Origin: Alphaproteobacteria bacterium
Lineage (GTDB): Bacteria; Pseudomonadota; Alphaproteobacteria; VGEJ01
DNA length: 64,000 bases
Assembly (NCBI GenBank): GCA_965226045.1
Contig: CBDDBU010000024.1
Location: 68,425-132,424 of the forward strand
Reading direction: 5' to 3'
The notes beneath the pieces are model-generated. The model had not been told where the DNA came from. It searched no databases and worked only from the letters and a program-made list of their open reading frames with translations. Below, piece by piece: positions 39,621 to 48,072 of the stretch; position 1 is the first letter of the stretch, and each line of letters starts with the position of its first letter. The position numbers were made by a program, and so were the translations under genes.

Positions 39621-40400
39621 GTGTCGTTCAATACCATCCTCTACGAAGAGCGCGGCCCTGTCGCCACGCTGACCCTGAACCGGCCCGACGACGGCAACAT
39701 GTTCACGGCCGACATGTGTCACGAGATCCGTAATTGTATCAACGAGATCCGGCGCGAGACGCGGACTCGCGTCCTCGTCATTACCGGTGCGGGCGAAAAG
39801 TTCTTCTGCATCGGCGGGCGCAAGGGGGGTCTGGAGGACACCCGCCTCTACGCCGGCGTTCTTCCCACGCTCGAGATGTACGAGGCGATCGACCGTCTAC
39901 AGAAGCCGGTGATCGCCAGCGTCAACGGCTCCGCCGTCGGCGGGGGCAATGTCCTGCAGATGGTCTGCGATCTGACGATCGCGAAGGCGAGCGCGATCTT
40001 TCGCCAAGTCGGCCCGATGATGGGGTCGTTCGATGCCGGCTACGGTACTTGGTACCTTGAGGATCTCGTCGGCAAGAAGAAGGCGAAGGAGATGTGGTAT
40101 TGCAACCATAAAATCCCCGCCGAGGAGGCGCTGCGTATCGGGCTCATCAACCGCGTCGTGCCGGATGATCTGCTGCGACAGGAGACCAGGAACTTCGCCT
40201 TCGAGGTGGCCGCGCGCGGAAGCTTCGCTCTGGCCTCGGTCAAGGCTGCCTTCAACGCGCGCCACGGAGGGGTCTCCGGCCTGGCGCGAATGGCGCACGA
40301 CCTTTTGTTGCGCGGTTATCTGGACGGCAGCGAGTCGAAGGAGCTGGGGGCGGCCTTCGCGGACCGCCGGGAGCCCGATCCGACGAAGTTTGGAAAATAG
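39621..40400 (+). CDS. MenB/BadI-type crotonase (C-C bond cleaving or forming hydrolase)
   Basis: GGGNVL..CDLTIA, QVGPMMGSFDAGYG, VGKKKAKEMWY. Confidence 0.85.
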   Translation: MSFNTILYEERGPVATLTLNRPDDGNMFTADMCHEIRNCINEIRRETRTRVLVITGAGEKFFCIGGRKGGLEDTRLYAGVLPTLEMYEAIDRLQKPVIASVNGSAVGGGNVLQMVCDLTIAKASAIFRQVGPMMGSFDAGYGTWYLEDLVGKKKAKEMWYCNHKIPAEEALRIGLINRVVPDDLLRQETRNFAFEVAARGSFALASVKAAFNARHGGVSGLARMAHDLLLRGYLDGSESKELGAAFADRREPDPTKFGK

Positions 40401-40406
40401 GAGCCG

Positions 40407-42077
40407 GTGCCCGCGTTTCTGACGTTGCATGATCCAAAGCGGGCCCGGGCCTATTACGACTCGGGCCTGTGGACGAGCGACACCTTCTACAGTTTGATGG
40501 TCGCGCACGCGGCTCGGGCGGGCGATGCCGTCGCTTTGCGGAGCGGTCGCGCGAGCTTGACCTGGGTGGAACTATTGCGCTGGGTCGAGAGCGTGGCGGC
40601 GGCCCTTCGCGCCGCAGGACTGACGATGGGTGATCGGGTATCGATGTGGTTGTCAAACCGCGTCGAGGCGGTGGTCACCTTTCTTGCCTGCTCGCGTGAG
40701 GGCTTCGCCTGCAATCCGTCGCTTCACCGCGCCTACGCCTGCCCCGAGGTCGCCGCGCTGCTGGCGCGGCTGAGGGCGGCAGCGCTCGTGACGGAGCCAG
40801 GTTGGGGGGCCGACCGTGACGAGCGCCAGCTCGATCGATTGCTTGCCGATCTCCCGTCCTTGCGTGTGGTCTGGCAGCCCGATGACTTCCCGAGGCGCGG
40901 CACCGGGTCGGATCGCGAGCCGTCGGATGACCCGGACAAGATCGTCTACCTGGCGTTCACGTCGGGGACCACCGGGGCACCGAAATGCGTCATGCACTCC
41001 GATAACACGCTGCTTGCGAATGCGCGCGATCTCGTCGCGGATTGGAAATTCGATGCCGAGACGCGCCTCCTCACCCTGAGCCCCCTCTCCCACCACATCG
41101 CCTGGGTGGCCGTCGGACAGTGGTTGGTCTCGGGCTGCCAACTGATCACCGACGATCCGCCTGCGGGCCACGGCAGGCTCGACTGGATCGTGGAAACGGG
41201 CGCGACCTACGTGATGGGGGTCCCAACCCACGCGATCGATGTTCTCGCGGAACAGAAGGCGCGCGGGGCGGATCGGATCGGCCAAGTGGAGGTTTTCTAC
41301 ATGGCGGGCGCCCCGATCCCGCCGTCGGTCGCCGAGACGTTGGCTCGCCAGGGCATCACACCGCAGAACGTCTACGGCATGACGGAGAACTCATCGCACC
41401 AGTACACCCATCGCGACGATGCGCCCGAGGTCGTCGTTGGCACCTGCGGTCGCGGAGGGCGCGCCTATCAGGTGCGCATCTTCGATCCTGACGATCCCGA
41501 CAAGCCACTGGGGCCGGGACAAGTCGGTGAAATCGGGGGTCGCGGGGCGACGCTGATGCTGGGGTACTTCGGCAACCAGGATGCCACCGAAGCGAGCTTC
41601 AACCGTGAAGGCTGGTTCCTCTCGGGCGACCTCGGTTCGCTCGATGCGCACGGCAATCTTAAGATCGAGGGACGCCTCAAGGATCTCATCATTCGCGGCG
41701 GCCACAACATCCATCCTGCTCGTATTGAAGCGATTGCCCTGCGGCATCCCGGCGTGCACAAGGCAGCCGCGTTTCCGGTGCCCGATGATCGGCTGGGAGA
41801 GAAGGCCTGCCTTGCAGTAACCGGCGTGGCGGACGGCCAGGCGCTTTTGGCGTTCCTTCTCGCCGAGGGGCTGTCGAAATACGATATGCCGGAGTACTTC
41901 GTTGCCATGGAGGCTTTGCCGTTGACGGCCAGCGGCAAGATCCTCAAGCGCGAGCTGGTCGAGATGCTGAACCGCGGCGATATCGCGCCGGAACCGTTGT
42001 TCTTCCGACCGGGTCGGGCGGCGGAAGGCATGGACGGGTTCGAGGAGAAACGCAAGTCTCAGTTCAAGGATGTCTGA
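40407..42077 (+). CDS. Acyl-CoA ligase (AliA/cyclohexanecarboxylate-CoA ligase-like)
   Basis: FTSGTTGAPK..MHS, YGMTE, SGDLG..GRLKDLIIRGG, LPLTASGKILK. Confidence 0.88.
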   Translation: MPAFLTLHDPKRARAYYDSGLWTSDTFYSLMVAHAARAGDAVALRSGRASLTWVELLRWVESVAAALRAAGLTMGDRVSMWLSNRVEAVVTFLACSREGFACNPSLHRAYACPEVAALLARLRAAALVTEPGWGADRDERQLDRLLADLPSLRVVWQPDDFPRRGTGSDREPSDDPDKIVYLAFTSGTTGAPKCVMHSDNTLLANARDLVADWKFDAETRLLTLSPLSHHIAWVAVGQWLVSGCQLITDDPPAGHGRLDWIVETGATYVMGVPTHAIDVLAEQKARGADRIGQVEVFYMAGAPIPPSVAETLARQGITPQNVYGMTENSSHQYTHRDDAPEVVVGTCGRGGRAYQVRIFDPDDPDKPLGPGQVGEIGGRGATLMLGYFGNQDATEASFNREGWFLSGDLGSLDAHGNLKIEGRLKDLIIRGGHNIHPARIEAIALRHPGVHKAAAFPVPDDRLGEKACLAVTGVADGQALLAFLLAEGLSKYDMPEYFVAMEALPLTASGKILKRELVEMLNRGDIAPEPLFFRPGRAAEGMDGFEEKRKSQFKDV

Positions 42078-42780
42078 CGGTCAGATCATCGTGACCGGCG
42101 GCAGCAGGGGCATTGGCGCCGCGATCGCGTCCGAGCTCGCCGGCCGTGGCCGTGCGGTGGTATGCCTGTCGCGCTCAGGGGTGGCGCCCGCCGGCCACAG
42201 CATCGCCTGCGACATGACCGATGAGATGACCGTGCGGGCGGCGTTGGCCGAGGTGGCGCGTTCAGGTCCCATCACCGGTCTGATCAACAATGCCGGCCTC
42301 CATTTGCGCGGGCCGGCCGCTGAGCTCTCGACCACCGATTACGAGCAGGTCATGGCGCTGAACGCGACCGCGGTCATGGTCGCATCGCGCGAGGCCTACC
42401 CTCATCTGAGGGCGGCAGGCGGCGGGATCATCGTCAATATCGGCTCGTTCTTCGACAAGTTGGGAGTTCGCGACAACCTCGCCTATAGCGCCTCGAAGGC
42501 CGCCGTGGGAGCGATCACGCGATGCTTGGCGGCCGAATGGGCCCGGGAGGGAATCGCGGTCGTGAACGTGGCGCCCGGCTACATCGAGACCGATCTCAAC
42601 CGTGATTTCTTGGTTTGCGAAGGCGTCAGGCGGTGGACCGAGAAGCGCATTCCGGTCGGGCGGGTCGGGCGGCCCCAGGAGGTGGCGCGCCTTGTCGCCG
42701 CATTGGTCATTGAGAACATCTCGTTCCTCACCGGCGAGACCATCTATCTCGACGGCGGCCAGGGGATGAGCCACGGGTGA
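42070..42780 (+). CDS. Short-chain dehydrogenase/reductase
   Basis: TGGSRGIG, NNAG, YSASK, APGYIETD. Confidence 0.92.
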   Translation: MSDGQIIVTGGSRGIGAAIASELAGRGRAVVCLSRSGVAPAGHSIACDMTDEMTVRAALAEVARSGPITGLINNAGLHLRGPAAELSTTDYEQVMALNATAVMVASREAYPHLRAAGGGIIVNIGSFFDKLGVRDNLAYSASKAAVGAITRCLAAEWAREGIAVVNVAPGYIETDLNRDFLVCEGVRRWTEKRIPVGRVGRPQEVARLVAALVIENISFLTGETIYLDGGQGMSHG

Positions 42781-43943
42781 AAATCTTCGAGCAACTCGAT
42801 CGCTGGCGGAACTGGGAGGGTACAGAGCGCATCGTCCTCGATCAGGTCCGGCGCGTCGCCGACGAGATCATCGGCCCGAACGCCGCGCCCCACGACCAAA
42901 GCGGGGGGTTCCCTTGGGACAATATCCGTGCTCTCAACGAGCTCGGACTGAACGCCATCTTCGTGCCCGAGGCCTATGGCGGCGCTCCGGCGCGGTATCG
43001 GCTGTACCTTGAGTGCGTGTCGATCATCTCCGAGGCCTGTGCGTCGACTGGCATCACCTACGCGACCAGCTTCCACGGCATGACGCCGCTGATCGAGTTC
43101 GGCACGGCGGATCAAAAATCTCGACTGCTGCCCCGCATTGCCCAGGGCGGACTGGCTTCCCTGGCGATCACCGAAACTGCGGCGGGATCCGATGCCACAG
43201 CGATGAAGACCCGGTTCGAGCCCGAAGACGATGCGATCGTGGTGACCGGGTCCAAGCTCTTCATTACCAGCGGCGACGTGGCTGATCTGATCCTCCTGTT
43301 CGGCAAGTGGTCCGAGATAGACGATGCCAGAGGCGCGCTCTCTGCATTGGTATTTGAGAAGGGGACTGAAGGTTTCGAGGTCGCGCGCAGGGAAAACAAG
43401 ATGGGGCACCGCGCGTCCTCGACGGCCGCCATCTCGTTTGACGGTTGCCGCGTTCCCCGCGCCAATCTGCTGGGCGCGCCGGGTGATGGACTGGAGATTC
43501 TGCTCGCCTCGCTGAACAGGTCGCGCCCCAGCATCGCCGCCCATGCCGTCGGTATCGCACGGGCCGCGTTCAAGGACATGGTCGCCTACATGAATGAACG
43601 TGCCCAGTCGGGTCGCAGCATAATCGAGTTCCAGGGCAACCAGTTCATGCTCGCCGACCTCGCCAGCGAGCTCGCGTTGGTGGAGAGCTGGCTCGACCAC
43701 GTCGCGGACCTGGTCGACGGCGCCGAGCCCGATTTCGGCATCGCCGCTTCTATCGCCAAGCTGCGTGCTTCCGACCTCGCCATGCGCATGACCACTGAGG
43801 CGGTCCAGATGCATGGCGGATACGGCTACTGCGCCGACTACCGTGTCGAGCGCCTCATGCGGGATGCCAAGATCACGCAGATCTGGGAGGGGACCAATCA
43901 GGTACACCGCCAGCTCATCGGCAGGAGCTTCAGGGCCAAATGA
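42777..43943 (+). CDS. Acyl-CoA dehydrogenase
   Basis: AITETAAGSD, GSKLFIT, KMG.R.S.T, HGGYGY..RDAKITQIWEGTNQV. Confidence 0.93.
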   Translation: MKIFEQLDRWRNWEGTERIVLDQVRRVADEIIGPNAAPHDQSGGFPWDNIRALNELGLNAIFVPEAYGGAPARYRLYLECVSIISEACASTGITYATSFHGMTPLIEFGTADQKSRLLPRIAQGGLASLAITETAAGSDATAMKTRFEPEDDAIVVTGSKLFITSGDVADLILLFGKWSEIDDARGALSALVFEKGTEGFEVARRENKMGHRASSTAAISFDGCRVPRANLLGAPGDGLEILLASLNRSRPSIAAHAVGIARAAFKDMVAYMNERAQSGRSIIEFQGNQFMLADLASELALVESWLDHVADLVDGAEPDFGIAASIAKLRASDLAMRMTTEAVQMHGGYGYCADYRVERLMRDAKITQIWEGTNQVHRQLIGRSFRAK

Positions 43944-44821
43944 CGACGGACGTCAGGACCGTTGGGGTATGTGGGGCCGGCGGGACGATGGGGGCGGGCA
44001 TAGCCATCGTGGCCGCACGGGCGGGCTTCGCGACCGTATGCTTCGACATCTCAAGTGAAGCGTTGAACCGCGTCCGCAGTCAGACTGAGGGTTTTTTCGA
44101 GAAATCGGTGGAGCGCGGCAAAATGAGCGCCGAGGCGAGAGCGGCTGCCCTTGCCCGAATGACGCCGACGACCGAGCTCGAAGGGCTCGGCGAGTGCGAT
44201 CTGATCGTCGAGGCGGTGGTCGAGGACCTCGGCGCCAAGCAGGGGCTGTTCGCTCGGTTGAACGCGGTTTGCCCCGCGCACGCCATTTTCGCGTCGAACA
44301 CCTCGACCCTGTCCATCACCGAGATCGCCTCGGGCTGCGGGCGCGAGGACAGGGTGGTTGGCATGCACTTCTGTTTGCCGGCGCCGCTGATGAAGCTGAT
44401 CGAGATGTCCTCTGGCCTGAACACCTCGCAGGAGGCGATGGCGGCGGCCTGGGCCTGGACGGAGGCCGCCGGCCAAAGACCCGTCAGAACCCAGGATCGG
44501 CCCGGCTTCATCCTCAACGCGCTTGTGGTCCCCTTCAACAACGACGCCATCCGCGCCGTCGAGGCCGGTGTCGCCACGCCCGGCGACATCGACAAGGCGA
44601 TGAAGGTCGGCCTCGGCTACAGGATGGGGCCGCTTGAACTGGTCGACCTGATCGGCCTCGACACGCAAATCCGCTTATGCGAGGCGTTCTATTCCACAAC
44701 TTTGGATCCGCGCGCCGCGACGCCGCCCCTGTTGCGCCGTATGGTGGCGGCGGGCCGGCTCGGCCGCAAATCGGGCCGCGGTTTCTATGCCTATGAAGGC
44801 AACGCGATGTACGGAGGATAG
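43940..44821 (+). CDS. 3-hydroxyacyl-CoA dehydrogenase
   Basis: GAGGTMGAGIA, EAVVE, ASNTS, GMHF..P..LIE, GFILN, GPLEL.D.IGLD, GRKSGRGFY. Confidence 0.92.
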   Translation: MTTDVRTVGVCGAGGTMGAGIAIVAARAGFATVCFDISSEALNRVRSQTEGFFEKSVERGKMSAEARAAALARMTPTTELEGLGECDLIVEAVVEDLGAKQGLFARLNAVCPAHAIFASNTSTLSITEIASGCGREDRVVGMHFCLPAPLMKLIEMSSGLNTSQEAMAAAWAWTEAAGQRPVRTQDRPGFILNALVVPFNNDAIRAVEAGVATPGDIDKAMKVGLGYRMGPLELVDLIGLDTQIRLCEAFYSTTLDPRAATPPLLRRMVAAGRLGRKSGRGFYAYEGNAMYGG

Positions 44822-44826
44822 GCCCA

Positions 44827-45453
44827 ATGCACTACCAGATCGTCAGACGGGGCCAAAGCCGCTCCTTCCCCGATGGCGATCCGTTCCTCGCGGCGGCGGT
44901 CGAGACGGCTGCGGTCGTGCTCTACCTCGGCGTGGCGCCGGTCGCCGACCGAACCAGAGCGGCCATCCTGGTCGAGCTTGGGATGGAGTGCCTGGGCGTC
45001 CACACAAACGAGGAGGCTGGCGAGGAAGGTTCCAACATGTTGGGGTTCGGGCGCTATCGTAACGGCGACGACGACCCGTCCAGGCTTATCGAGCTGGTCC
45101 GCCAGCCGCGTTCGCGATCCTCAGCCATCGAGGCGGCGACCGCGGTGTTCGAGGCCGCCGGATTCGAGGTCGTTTTGTGCGGCGACCAGGCCGGCCGCAT
45201 CGTTGATCGCCTGGTACGCCCCAAATACAACACGGTCCTGCGCTTCCTCGATGAAGGGCTGGCGACCGCCGAGGACTTGGACCTGACCTGCCGACTGGGG
45301 CTCGGCTATCCAGATGGCCTCATCGAACGCGTAGAACGTGGCGGTTTGATCCACCACTACGAGGCCACCCGGGCTCTGTTCGAGGTTTACGGAACGTCGG
45401 CCTATGCGCCGGCCCGTCGCGCCGTGGTCGCCAAGGCGCGGGAGCGGCGGTGA
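44827..45453 (+). CDS. 3-hydroxyacyl-CoA dehydrogenase-like protein lacking the Rossmann motif
   Basis: C-terminal domain (GRIVDRLV..N..LRFLDEGLATAEDLD..LGLGYP); no GxGxxG or HF motif. Confidence 0.75.
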   Translation: MHYQIVRRGQSRSFPDGDPFLAAAVETAAVVLYLGVAPVADRTRAAILVELGMECLGVHTNEEAGEEGSNMLGFGRYRNGDDDPSRLIELVRQPRSRSSAIEAATAVFEAAGFEVVLCGDQAGRIVDRLVRPKYNTVLRFLDEGLATAEDLDLTCRLGLGYPDGLIERVERGGLIHHYEATRALFEVYGTSAYAPARRAVVAKARERR

Positions 45454-46574
45454 TGGCTGGGCCGCTCTCCGGGACGCGCATCCTCGATTTTACGACCCTG
45501 TTGCCAGGGCCCGTCGCCACTTTGCTTCTGGCCGAGGCGGGGGCCGAAGTGATCAAGATCGAGCGCCCCGGCCGCGGCGAGGAGATGCGGTCTTACACCC
45601 CAAAATGGGGATCGGACAGCGTGAACTTCGCCATGTTGAACAGGGGCAAGCGCAGCCTTGCGCTCGATCTCAAGGATCCGGCGACGCGGGCGCGGCTGAG
45701 GGGGTTAATCAAGACCGCCGATGTCTTGGTCGAGCAATTCCGGCCCGGGGTCATGGCGCGGCTGGAGCTCGGCTACGAATCAGTCGCCGAGATCAATCCC
45801 CGAATGATCTACTGCTCGATCAGCGGGTATGGCCAGACTGGCGCGAAGAGCGATGTCGCAGGACACGACCTCAACTACATTGGCGATGCCGGCCTGCTCT
45901 CGCTCAGCATGGGATCGGCGGAGCATCCGGTCATTCCGCCGGTGCTGATCGCCGACATTGCCGGTGGCGCCTACCCCGCGGTCATGAACATCCTGCTAGC
46001 GCTGCGCGAACGCGATCGGACCGGCAGGGGTTGCTGGCTCGATATCGCCATGGCCGACAACGTATTCCCCTTCCTCTACTGGGCGATTGGCAATAGCCGT
46101 GTCGCCGGACAGTGGCCCCGCAACGGCGATGAGCTGGTGACGGGAGGCTCGCCGAGGTATCAGCTCTACCCGACCTCCGACCATCGGTTTGTCGCCGCAG
46201 CGCCGCTTGAGCAGAAGTTCTGGGAGGCGTTCGCGGACGCGATCGGGCTCGAGGCCGAGCGGCGCGACGATGCGCGCGATCCGTCCGCGACCAGGCGACA
46301 CGTCGCCCACATCATACGGGGCCGAACGGCCGATCATTGGGAGCCGCGGTTGAGGGCGGCCGACTGCTGCTGCTCGATTGTGCGGACATTGGCGGAAGCG
46401 CTCGCCGATCCGCACTTCGCCGGGCGTGGCATCCACGCCGAGACGCTTCTGAACGATGCCGGCGAAGAAATACCGGCGCTCCCGGTTCCCATCGTCCCCG
46501 GCTTTCGTGCCCGCCGAGGAGAGGCGCTGTCGGCCCCGGCGCTCGGCGCCGACAACAAGGAGCTGCTCTCATAA
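45450..46574 (+). CDS. CaiB/BaiF family III CoA transferase
   Basis: LPGPVATLLLAEAGAEVIKIE, NRGKRS, FRPGV, GHDLNY. Confidence 0.92.
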   Translation: MMAGPLSGTRILDFTTLLPGPVATLLLAEAGAEVIKIERPGRGEEMRSYTPKWGSDSVNFAMLNRGKRSLALDLKDPATRARLRGLIKTADVLVEQFRPGVMARLELGYESVAEINPRMIYCSISGYGQTGAKSDVAGHDLNYIGDAGLLSLSMGSAEHPVIPPVLIADIAGGAYPAVMNILLALRERDRTGRGCWLDIAMADNVFPFLYWAIGNSRVAGQWPRNGDELVTGGSPRYQLYPTSDHRFVAAAPLEQKFWEAFADAIGLEAERRDDARDPSATRRHVAHIIRGRTADHWEPRLRAADCCCSIVRTLAEALADPHFAGRGIHAETLLNDAGEEIPALPVPIVPGFRARRGEALSAPALGADNKELLS

Positions 46575-47632
46575 GGGCCGTCGTCGTCGACGAGTTCACG
46601 CGGTTTGATCGCGCGTCCTTTCGCGACCTGCCCGATCCGGTGCCGGGTGCTGGCGAGGTCGTCGTCGCGGTCAGCGCCGCGGAGGTGAATTATCCGGACA
46701 TCCTGGTGATCGAAGGCAAATACCAAGTCAGGCCGCCGCTTCCCTTCTCGCCCGGCAAGGCCGCCGCGGGGGTTGTCGAGGCGGTCGGGGATGGCGTTCG
46801 CGGCGTGAAGCCGGGCGACCGGGTCGCGGTCCAGGTGGAGTACGGTGCCTATGCCGAAAAGCTGCGCGCGCCGGCGGCGAATTGCTACCCCTTGCCAGAG
46901 GCCCTGAGCTTCGACCAGGGGGCGGCGTTAGGGCTCGTGTATCAGACGGCCCACTTCGCGCTGCTCGACCGCGCTCGTCTCAAGGCGGGTGAATCCGTCC
47001 TCGTGCTCGGCGCTTCGGGCGGGATCGGCACGGCGAGCACGCAACTGGCGAAAGCTCTCGGTGCGGGCCAGGTGATCGCGGGCGTGTTGGGCAGCAAAAA
47101 CGCGCGGGTGGCCCTGCAGATCGGTGCCGATTGCGTCGTCGATCTCGAGATCGACGATCTACGGGATGGACTACGTGACGAGGTTCGGAAACTCACCGAT
47201 GGCCGCGGCGTCGATATCGTCATCGATCCGGTCGGCGGGCCGGCGACCGAAGCGGCGCTGCGCTGTCTAGCCTGGCGCGGCCGCATCGTGATCATCGGCT
47301 TCGCCGCCGGCTTCATACCGCGCATCGCGGCGAACTACCTGCTGGTCAAGAACATATCGGTGGTCGGCCTTCAGTGGTCAGACTACCGCGAGCGCGACCC
47401 GGGCTGGGTCGCCCGTGTCCAGGACCAGATTTTCGCCCTCGCCAGTGCCGGCCAGATCGATCCTTACATCAGCAGGATCATGCCGCTCGAACGATACGCC
47501 GATGCGTTGAGTCTTCTCCGTGACGGCAGGGCGCAGGGGAAGATCATCCTCTCAGTCGAATCTTCCGGGCCGGGCCCGGGGCGCGAACGAGAGACCGAGC
47601 CAGCGCGCCATCGGACGGAGCAAAAGCCATGA
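46571..47632 (+). CDS. NADPH:quinone oxidoreductase (zeta-crystallin) family, with an apparent ATA start
   Basis: VNYPD..YQVRPPLPFSPG, LVLGASGGIG, DPVGG, LLVKNI; AAGGAG 8 nt before ATA at 46571. Confidence 0.82.
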   Translation: MRAVVVDEFTRFDRASFRDLPDPVPGAGEVVVAVSAAEVNYPDILVIEGKYQVRPPLPFSPGKAAAGVVEAVGDGVRGVKPGDRVAVQVEYGAYAEKLRAPAANCYPLPEALSFDQGAALGLVYQTAHFALLDRARLKAGESVLVLGASGGIGTASTQLAKALGAGQVIAGVLGSKNARVALQIGADCVVDLEIDDLRDGLRDEVRKLTDGRGVDIVIDPVGGPATEAALRCLAWRGRIVIIGFAAGFIPRIAANYLLVKNISVVGLQWSDYRERDPGWVARVQDQIFALASAGQIDPYISRIMPLERYADALSLLRDGRAQGKIILSVESSGPGPGRERETEPARHRTEQKP

Positions 47633-48072
47633 ACATCCTTCTGATTCAGGGCGCCAACATGGAGTATCTCGGCAGGCGCGAGCCCGAGCATTACGGGACC
47701 ACGACGGCCGAGGATCTCGACCGCATGCTGATGGACGAGGCGGGTCGACGCGAGATGAGACTCGACATCCGCTACACCAACCTCGAGGGAGAAGCGATCG
47801 GTTGGATCTATCAGGCGGATCGCGGTGACGGCGCCGGATTGGTGATGAACCCCGGTGGCTTCGTCTACGCCGCATACGCCCTGCGTGACTGCCTCAAAGG
47901 CGTGTCTTTGCCGTATGTCGAGGTGCACATGACCAACCTCGATCGACGGGGGATGCGCTCGGCCACGGCGGGCGAGGCCGACGGCATGATCATGGGCCTC
48001 GGTATCCGCTCCTATGTTCTGGCGCTTGACGCGATCAAAGCGATCATCGCTGGCGACTCCGCCACGAGCTGA
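47629..48072 (+). CDS. Type II 3-dehydroquinate dehydratase-like protein (divergent AroQ)
   Basis: GANMEYLGRREPEHYG, NPGG, ALRD, YVEVHMTN. Confidence 0.8.
   Translation: MNILLIQGANMEYLGRREPEHYGTTTAEDLDRMLMDEAGRREMRLDIRYTNLEGEAIGWIYQADRGDGAGLVMNPGGFVYAAYALRDCLKGVSLPYVEVHMTNLDRRGMRSATAGEADGMIMGLGIRSYVLALDAIKAIIAGDSATS

Follow-up and report, generated by a model that had tools for sequence, protein, structure and literature searches.

What does a homolog of a shikimate-pathway enzyme do at the end of a catabolic CoA operon? The question is raised by a stretch of 64,000 nucleotides (the window) from an Alphaproteobacteria bacterium (GTDB lineage VGEJ01; assembly GCA_965226045.1, contig CBDDBU010000024.1, positions 68,425 to 132,424 of the forward strand), in which the last gene of a bad/ali-like operon encodes a protein related to AroQ, the type II 3-dehydroquinate dehydratase (dehydroquinase). 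We call it AroQL. Its sequence predicts that it is most likely a catalytically competent paralog of this enzyme and not the housekeeping shikimate enzyme, and we see about an even chance that it is an active dehydratase whose substrate recognition has changed. The gene and its start region are as follows.

47629 to 48072, plus strand: AroQL coding sequence P0001, 147 amino acids (aa), an open reading frame with a PF01220 match
47617 to 47620, plus strand: GGAG ribosome-binding site, 8 nt 5' of the ATG, read directly from the sequence
47629 to 47632, plus strand: ATGA in which the AroQL start overlaps the stop codon of the MDR gene before it (translational coupling), from the sequence and the reading-frame ends

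The open reading frame given in the preliminary description of this locus is present with all the motifs quoted there and matches the Pfam family DHquinase_II (PF01220) over its full length, residues 2-136 aligning to profile positions 1-137 at 126.7 bits (E 6.6e-37; cut-off 23.3 bits). By sequence it matches 39 distinct type II dehydroquinase structures (best E 3.8e-26). An AlphaFold (AF2) model made from 33 relatives reaches a mean pLDDT of 92.2, and Foldseek aligned this model with type II dehydroquinase structures (TM 0.83-0.89, probability 1.00). The threshold of the aroQ equivalog TIGR01088 is not reached (124.6 bits versus 169.85). AroQL is a genuine, well-conserved additional copy of a type II dehydroquinase.

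Active-site residues of AroQL

The contacts of the substrate in the Mycobacterium tuberculosis enzyme provide the frame for reading the AroQL pocket (PMC6011038). There the carboxylate is bound by the main-chain NH groups of residues 102 and 103, by the side chain of Ser103 (Thr104 in the H. pylori enzyme) and by Asn75; the C1-hydroxyl by Asn75 and the proton donor His101; the C4-hydroxyl by Asp88 from the adjacent subunit; the C5-hydroxyl by His81 and Arg112; and the C3 carbonyl via a water that Pro11, Asn12 and Gly78 hold in place. The base is Tyr24, helped by Arg19, Arg108 and Arg112 (PMC6011038; for the lid Arg and Tyr also PMC7144000). We checked this residue numbering through motif spacing on AroQL and on the canonical AroQ of the same genome. 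Three segments carry the comparison; the counts refer to the clade of AroQL relatives described below.

47677 to 47694, plus strand: lid loop codons, Arg17 through Tyr22 (in M. tuberculosis Arg19 and Tyr24), with Arg17 in all 150 clade members and Tyr22 in 149 of them
47848 to 47892, plus strand: NPGGFVYAAYALRDC, with Asn74 retained, Tyr80 for His81, Asp87 retained and the clade-specific Cys88, from the alignment and the clade comparison
47920 to 47961, plus strand: EVHMTNLDRRGMRS, with Glu98, His100 and Arg107 retained, a loop 3 residues shorter and no equivalent of Phe111-Arg112, from the alignment and the clade comparison

Each motif change described earlier is there. The lid reads GRREPEHYG, with Arg17 and Tyr22; GANME stands at the canonical GPNLN, where the Asn of GPN (Asn12) is retained and Pro alone is changed, to Ala; NPGGFVYAAYALRDC occupies the canonical ..YTHTS.. 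site; and EVHMTNLDRRGMRS lies at EVH.SN.HAREEFRHxS, with the segment after Arg107 shorter by 3 residues than in the canonical AroQ of the same genome. The change of Ser to Thr in EVHxS is shared with the H. pylori enzyme, which has Thr104 at this site (PMC6011038), and is therefore compatible with a canonical enzyme.

Equivalents of the lid Arg19 and Tyr24 and of the neighbouring-subunit Asp88 are all present (Arg17, Tyr22 and Asp87), and AroQL also retains His100, Glu98, Arg107, Asn10, Asn74 and Thr102, which cover the proton donor, Arg108, the water site and the carboxylate clamp. The pair that binds the C5-hydroxyl is absent: Tyr80 replaces His81, and the Arg112 position is deleted. Judged from the alignment, the residues for the chemistry and for a free carboxylate are retained, and the two contacts to the C5-hydroxyl are those lost. 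The E1cB set would accordingly comprise, as in canonical enzymes, the lid Arg with the Tyr base, an Asp contributed by the adjacent subunit, the acid pair His/Glu, Arg108, the water-holding Asn at the enolate and the clamp for the carboxylate, while the C5-hydroxyl binders would have gone by loop deletion (Arg112) and by substitution (His81). Since the catalytic residues are kept and the C5 contacts are not, AroQL most likely dehydrates or hydrates a cyclic beta-hydroxy-ketone with a free acid group, similar to dehydroquinate except on the C5 side.

Canonical AroQ/DHQ2 enzymes of solved structure (M. tuberculosis, H. pylori, S. coelicolor, T. thermophilus) have the same fold as AroQL at 31-40% identity and share with it the lid Arg/Tyr, Asp88', Glu99/His101, Arg108, Asn12 and the clamp of Asn75 and Ser/Thr103. 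AroQL differs from them by the shortened loop without Arg112 and the replaced His81 (Tyr here), and further by substitutions in which the Asn before GxN has become Gln, Pro11 Ala, the Ala after Asp88 Cys, and the His after EVHxSN Glu/Asp. It differs also in scoring under the equivalog cut-off, in not lying beside accBC and in always being accompanied by a canonical copy.

A change of this kind has a precedent. The aminodehydroquinate dehydratase of the AHBA pathway (RifJ type), an actinobacterial homolog of type II dehydroquinases, acts on a substrate with an amino group at C5, so that a dehydroquinase scaffold has been re-used on a C5-changed substrate; we liken the two by description. Among the AroQL neighbours we saw no AHBA-pathway genes.

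The AroQL clade and the canonical copy

A search of 5.8 billion proteins returned more than 100 clusters with 59-73% identity to AroQL and the same motifs (QGANM..LG, NPAGF.YAGYALRDC and EVHMTN..RRG.HS). The paralogs form one group (30 rows, SH-aLRT 99) in a tree of 95 AroQ sequences, with one long-branch canonical row branching immediately outside. We compared 150 members of this clade with 65 canonical sequences. The loop from Arg107 to Ser111 has 5 residues in 150/150 clade members versus 8-9 in 65/65 canonical sequences, and position 80, the His81 site, is Tyr in 112 of the clade members, His in 21 and Phe in 14. Other pocket-region changes are nearly as general: Gln7 in 148/150 (canonical Asn), Ala9 in 140/150 (canonical Pro), Glu/Asp105 in 141/150 (canonical His) and Cys88 (47890-47892), right after the catalytic Asp87, in 147/150, this last position being Ala in 61/65 canonical sequences. 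Asn10, Arg17, Tyr22, Asn74, Asp87, Glu98, His100 and Arg107 are each retained in 146-150 of the 150 members (Arg17 150, Tyr22 149, Asp87 146; Asn10, Glu98, His100 and Arg107 149 or 150, and Asn74 149), as is Thr/Ser102 in all 150.

By this comparison the motif changes are hallmarks of a supported clade and not private decay. AroQL and its ortholog in locus L096 (same family, 91% identity) give a dN/dS of 0.18 at a dS of 0.29; on this value and the invariant catalytic residues we reject a pseudogene or a decaying gene. What had been described as a remodelled active site is thus borne out across the 150 members as the pocket of a conserved paralog with its catalytic residues intact.

The source genome (3.23 Mb, 28 contigs, 91% complete) holds two PF01220 genes, AroQL with 126.2 bits and a copy on contig C25 with 200.5 bits. 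The latter (G000 contig C25, 716-1156) has accB and accC after it, reads GPNLN, YTHTS and HAREPFRHRS and is, on these motifs and neighbours, the evident shikimate-pathway enzyme of the genome. It belongs to the same family as AroQL and has the same length, with 38% identity between the two. The preliminary description had seen no aro genes in the operon and left it to be confirmed that a canonical aroQ or aroD exists elsewhere; the canonical gene sits on contig C25 instead, as aroQ-accB-accC.

The same holds wherever we looked: 16/16 genomes with AroQL also have a canonical aroQ (188-210 bits versus 119-143 bits for AroQL). Neither by copy number nor by context is AroQL the dehydroquinase of its genome, as it is never the sole copy and does not adjoin accBC. 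A type I dehydroquinase was looked for in 6 AroQL genomes, the source genome among them, and was absent from all. The clade is uncommon, being found in 12/400 sampled genomes of the class and in 1/400 in the phylum sample, and it spans many families of Alpha- and Betaproteobacteria.

Variation within the family extends to other sequences. Canonical-type AroQ with YTTTS, i.e. with Thr for His81, occurs in L021, L022, L024, L025, L029, L031, L034, L035, L039, L042, L043 and L055; these 12 of the 65 canonical rows come from Acetobacteraceae-like and Bradyrhizobiaceae-like genomes. A sphingomonad variant (L026, L037, L046 and L077) has NPAAFSYAGYP.., REEAWR.., Tyr at the His81 position and a loop one residue longer, and in L037 it is accompanied by a canonical copy. 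The genome of L013 (G003, 7.8 Mb) carries four PF01220 genes scoring 200, 192, 143 and 109 bits, the weakest of which (C7:2065462-2065863) is another divergent paralog.

The CoA operon and the BadK-like step

The surroundings of AroQL in the window comprise the following features.

39621 to 46574, plus strand: bad/ali-like CoA operon, co-oriented with AroQL, from Pfam and NCBIfam matches
46337 to 47632, plus strand: MDR / quinone-oxidoreductase-like reductase directly 5' of AroQL, from matches to ADH_N, ADH_zinc_N and TIGR02824
48181 to 48735, minus strand: IS6-family transposase fragment directly 3' of the operon and AroQL, from partial matches to PF13610 and NF033587

The operon encodes a BadI/MenB-like crotonase, an acyl-CoA ligase, an SDR, an acyl-CoA dehydrogenase, a 3-hydroxyacyl-CoA dehydrogenase with a partner consisting of the HCDH C-domain only, and a family III CoA-transferase. 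AroQL does adjoin this catabolic unit, as stated earlier, being its last gene, after the MDR gene. The MDR gene matches TIGR02824 (PIG3 family) with 211.8 bits from residue 80, and homology begins near 46574. At that point (window 46557-46600) the sequence reads ATA AGG GCC GTC, and the equivalent in L096 is ATA AAA GCC GTC; the ATA, conserved across two genera, is therefore not a fresh mutation.

Our survey of gene context covered 30 genome loci and about 21 metagenome loci, mostly short. A link to the CoA operon was found for the window and for L096, L004 and L014. L096 has the operon and AroQL in an order identical to that of the window, L004 has AroQL in a divergent unit (MDR, SDR, cl22, AroQL) adjoining the operon, and in L014 AroQL is divergent from the operon and belongs to a different AroQL subclade than the other three. 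That the link persists despite rearrangement suggests a functional tie and not synteny alone. Where the operon has the SDR gene in the window (42070-42780) and in L096, it has a crotonase enoyl-CoA hydratase in L004 (3354-4121) and L014 (4685-5440).

In the preliminary description AroQL was offered as a candidate for the missing BadK-like step, which would mean hydration of cyclohex-1-ene-1-carbonyl-CoA or a related enoyl-CoA in place of the BadK absent from the operon. The BadI-like gene is indeed the sole crotonase of the operon in the window and in L096, where no crotonase hydratase is found, and AroQL is the last, translationally coupled gene. BadK and AroQL would both add or remove water on a derivative of a six-membered ring acid, and the AroQL gene sits in a bad/ali-like operon. 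BadK, on the other hand, has the crotonase fold and acts on a CoA thioester (PMC9795900), whereas AroQL has the flavodoxin-like dehydroquinase fold, with no match to the crotonase family ECH (PF00378) in Pfam or NCBIfam. Its carboxylate clamp is conserved in the clade (Asn74 in 149/150, Thr/Ser102 in 150/150; roles from PMC6011038), and such conserved residues for a free carboxylate argue for a free acid and against a CoA thioester.

Moreover, in L004 and L014 the crotonase-type hydratase lies in the BadK position, between dehydrogenase and ligase, with AroQL beside the operon as well, so the two genes are not alternatives to each other. Contig C28 of the source genome encodes a homolog of this hydratase with 47% identity, and four further crotonases are found in that genome outside the window. 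Many bad-ali clusters are without badK, the badK-like gene usually being supplied from elsewhere (PMC9795900), and most clade members do not lie near a CoA operon. We regard a BadK-like role of AroQL as highly improbable: the kept carboxylate clamp, the coexistence of hydratase and AroQL and the homolog on contig C28 all speak against it. Of the earlier proposal of a repurposed dehydratase or hydratase, then, the remodelled pocket with intact catalytic residues stands and the BadK-like role is not supported.

Contexts beyond the CoA operon vary, and our search for a clade-wide operon partner gave none. The arrangement gltB-gltD-AroQL with a convergent PPOX-type protein occurs in one subclade only and so counts as about one observation; RecG, an esterase and a TRAP transporter accompany AroQL in another single-subclade pattern. 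A class I/II aminotransferase is translationally coupled to AroQL in L102 and L103. PNPOx is found near AroQL in L010, MarR and a cupin in L011, and DinB, kinases and hemerythrin at other loci. Among 36 neighbours from metagenome loci, the Pfam tally gave PNPOx 4 times and SDR 3 times, with no further family more than twice.

A family of about 240 aa, here cl22, directly adjoins AroQL in three different contexts (L004:9249-9998, plus strand; L014:9152-9868, minus strand; L104:9019-9744, plus strand). Sequence searches of Pfam, NCBIfam and the PDB gave no match to it, and in the atlas its neighbours are labelled 'hypothetical', apart from one cluster with ABM on 16% of members, a weak hint. Within the class sample cl22 is present in 10/12 AroQL-positive genomes versus 40/388 others, genomes that are related, which makes this a lead only. 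Fusions of AroQL to a C-terminal DUF6306 domain occur in the metagenome proteins P0131, P0132 and P0134 (about 297-299 aa in total); they are the only fusion type found and are uninformative, and we found no paper on DUF6306. The long fused frames of L100 (a 547-aa open frame) and L119 were set aside as read-through artefacts of high GC and not fusions.

Candidate functions

If an altered substrate is accepted, the neighbouring reductases may indicate what happens to the product. MDR homologs lie near AroQL at 6 loci. L100 has PRISE-AroQL-OYE on the same strand (L100:3601-6443, minus strand), L016 an SDR and CMD, and L004 an SDR in the AroQL unit; together the MDR, OYE, PRISE and SDR neighbours form a weak reductase theme. 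The PRISE-type protein of L100 is progesterone 5-beta-reductase/iridoid synthase-like, OYE is an Old Yellow Enzyme flavin reductase, and both families include enone reductases.

The substrate would be a dehydroquinate-like free-acid ring beta-hydroxy-ketone, different on the C5 side. Its dehydration by AroQL, presumably a peripheral step, would yield an enone acid, which the co-translated MDR protein could saturate before CoA activation, and the reduced product would then enter the CoA-dependent ring cleavage of the bad/ali-like operon. This specific role of AroQL and MDR in the operon is plausible, and we place it below the altered-substrate reading itself. Extended to the whole clade, the idea is that a new activity has arisen on the dehydroquinase scaffold: a (de)hydratase for a dehydroquinate-like ring acid with a different C5 (deoxy, amino or some other change), whose enone product is passed to ene-reductases (MDR, OYE or PRISE), and which in this lineage forms a peripheral route for oxygenated alicyclic acids into bad/ali CoA ring cleavage. 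In so full a form we put it forward tentatively.

Several observations weigh against the altered-substrate reading and its link to the operon. AroQL narrowly passes the cut-off of the NCBIfam subfamily NF003807 (130.4 versus 130 bits). A seventh of the clade (21/150) retains His at the His81 position, and this residue is not invariant in canonical enzymes either, 12/65 having Thr. Arg or Lys is found at position 106 in 122/150 clade members and might partly substitute for Arg112. As for context, only 4/30 genome loci show the link to the CoA operon, the neighbours of AroQL are heterogeneous (gltBD, RecG, TRAP transporter, aminotransferase, PNPOx, MarR, DinB), and the reductase theme, weak in itself, concerns a minority of loci and lacks a background control.

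Some of these points would equally suit an AroQL that is still a 3-dehydroquinate dehydratase, i.e. a second isoenzyme (catabolic, stress-specific or of low affinity) in which the loop tunes kinetics or regulation. All residues for catalysis and for contacts to the carboxylate, C1 and C4 are kept, databases label the AroQL relatives type II dehydroquinase, the NF003807 cut-off is passed by 0.4 bits, canonical enzymes tolerate Thr at the His81 position, and Arg/Lys106 could take the place of Arg112. Against it, the deletion that removes Arg112 is universal in the clade and is accompanied by the pocket-region changes Gln7, Ala9, Cys88 and Glu/Asp105, the score is far under the equivalog cut-off, and AroQL was never the sole copy in the 16 genomes. 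Nor is a quinate route evident: the source genome, 91% complete, has a single shikimate dehydrogenase and no PF00775 intradiol dioxygenase, and the AroQL neighbours examined showed no genes for quinate or shikimate, which weakens this explanation. We consider an isoenzyme possible, if somewhat doubtful.

It is also conceivable that the scaffold serves other enolate chemistry (double-bond isomerisation, epimerisation or tautomerisation, possibly via Cys88) or acts without catalysis, for instance as a ligand sensor or in mixed oligomers with the canonical AroQ. The Cys adjoining the catalytic Asp, found in 147/150 members where canonical enzymes have Ala, would fit such chemistry, as would the very varied contexts, including stress-type genes (MarR, DinB, CMD, OYE, hemerythrin), the existence of DUF6306 fusions and the recurrence of the ABM-like cl22 protein beside AroQL. 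Against this, the base (Tyr/Arg/Asp) and the acid (His/Glu) on the leaving hydroxyl are fully retained, which best fits dehydration or hydration, and invariant catalytic residues speak against a dead protein. We therefore hold these options to be unlikely, and an active dehydratase with a changed substrate remains the reading we prefer.

We found no paper on the AroQL clade or on dehydroquinase-like or AroQ-like proteins, and none linking a dehydroquinase with BadI or cyclohexanecarboxylate; on paralogs our search returned reviews of drug targets only. The stakes are moderate, as no long-standing question depends on AroQL. Type II dehydroquinase is a much-studied drug target with a well-mapped active site, and a clade-wide loss of exactly the C5-hydroxyl contacts, with the catalytic set kept, amounts to a natural experiment on specificity change in this scaffold. 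If the activity of AroQL differs, the dehydroquinase labels that databases give these proteins are wrong, and metabolic reconstructions would include a shikimate step that is redundant. Finally, if the link to reductases and to bad/ali genes holds, AroQL would point to a so far undescribed route for the entry of substituted alicyclic acids.

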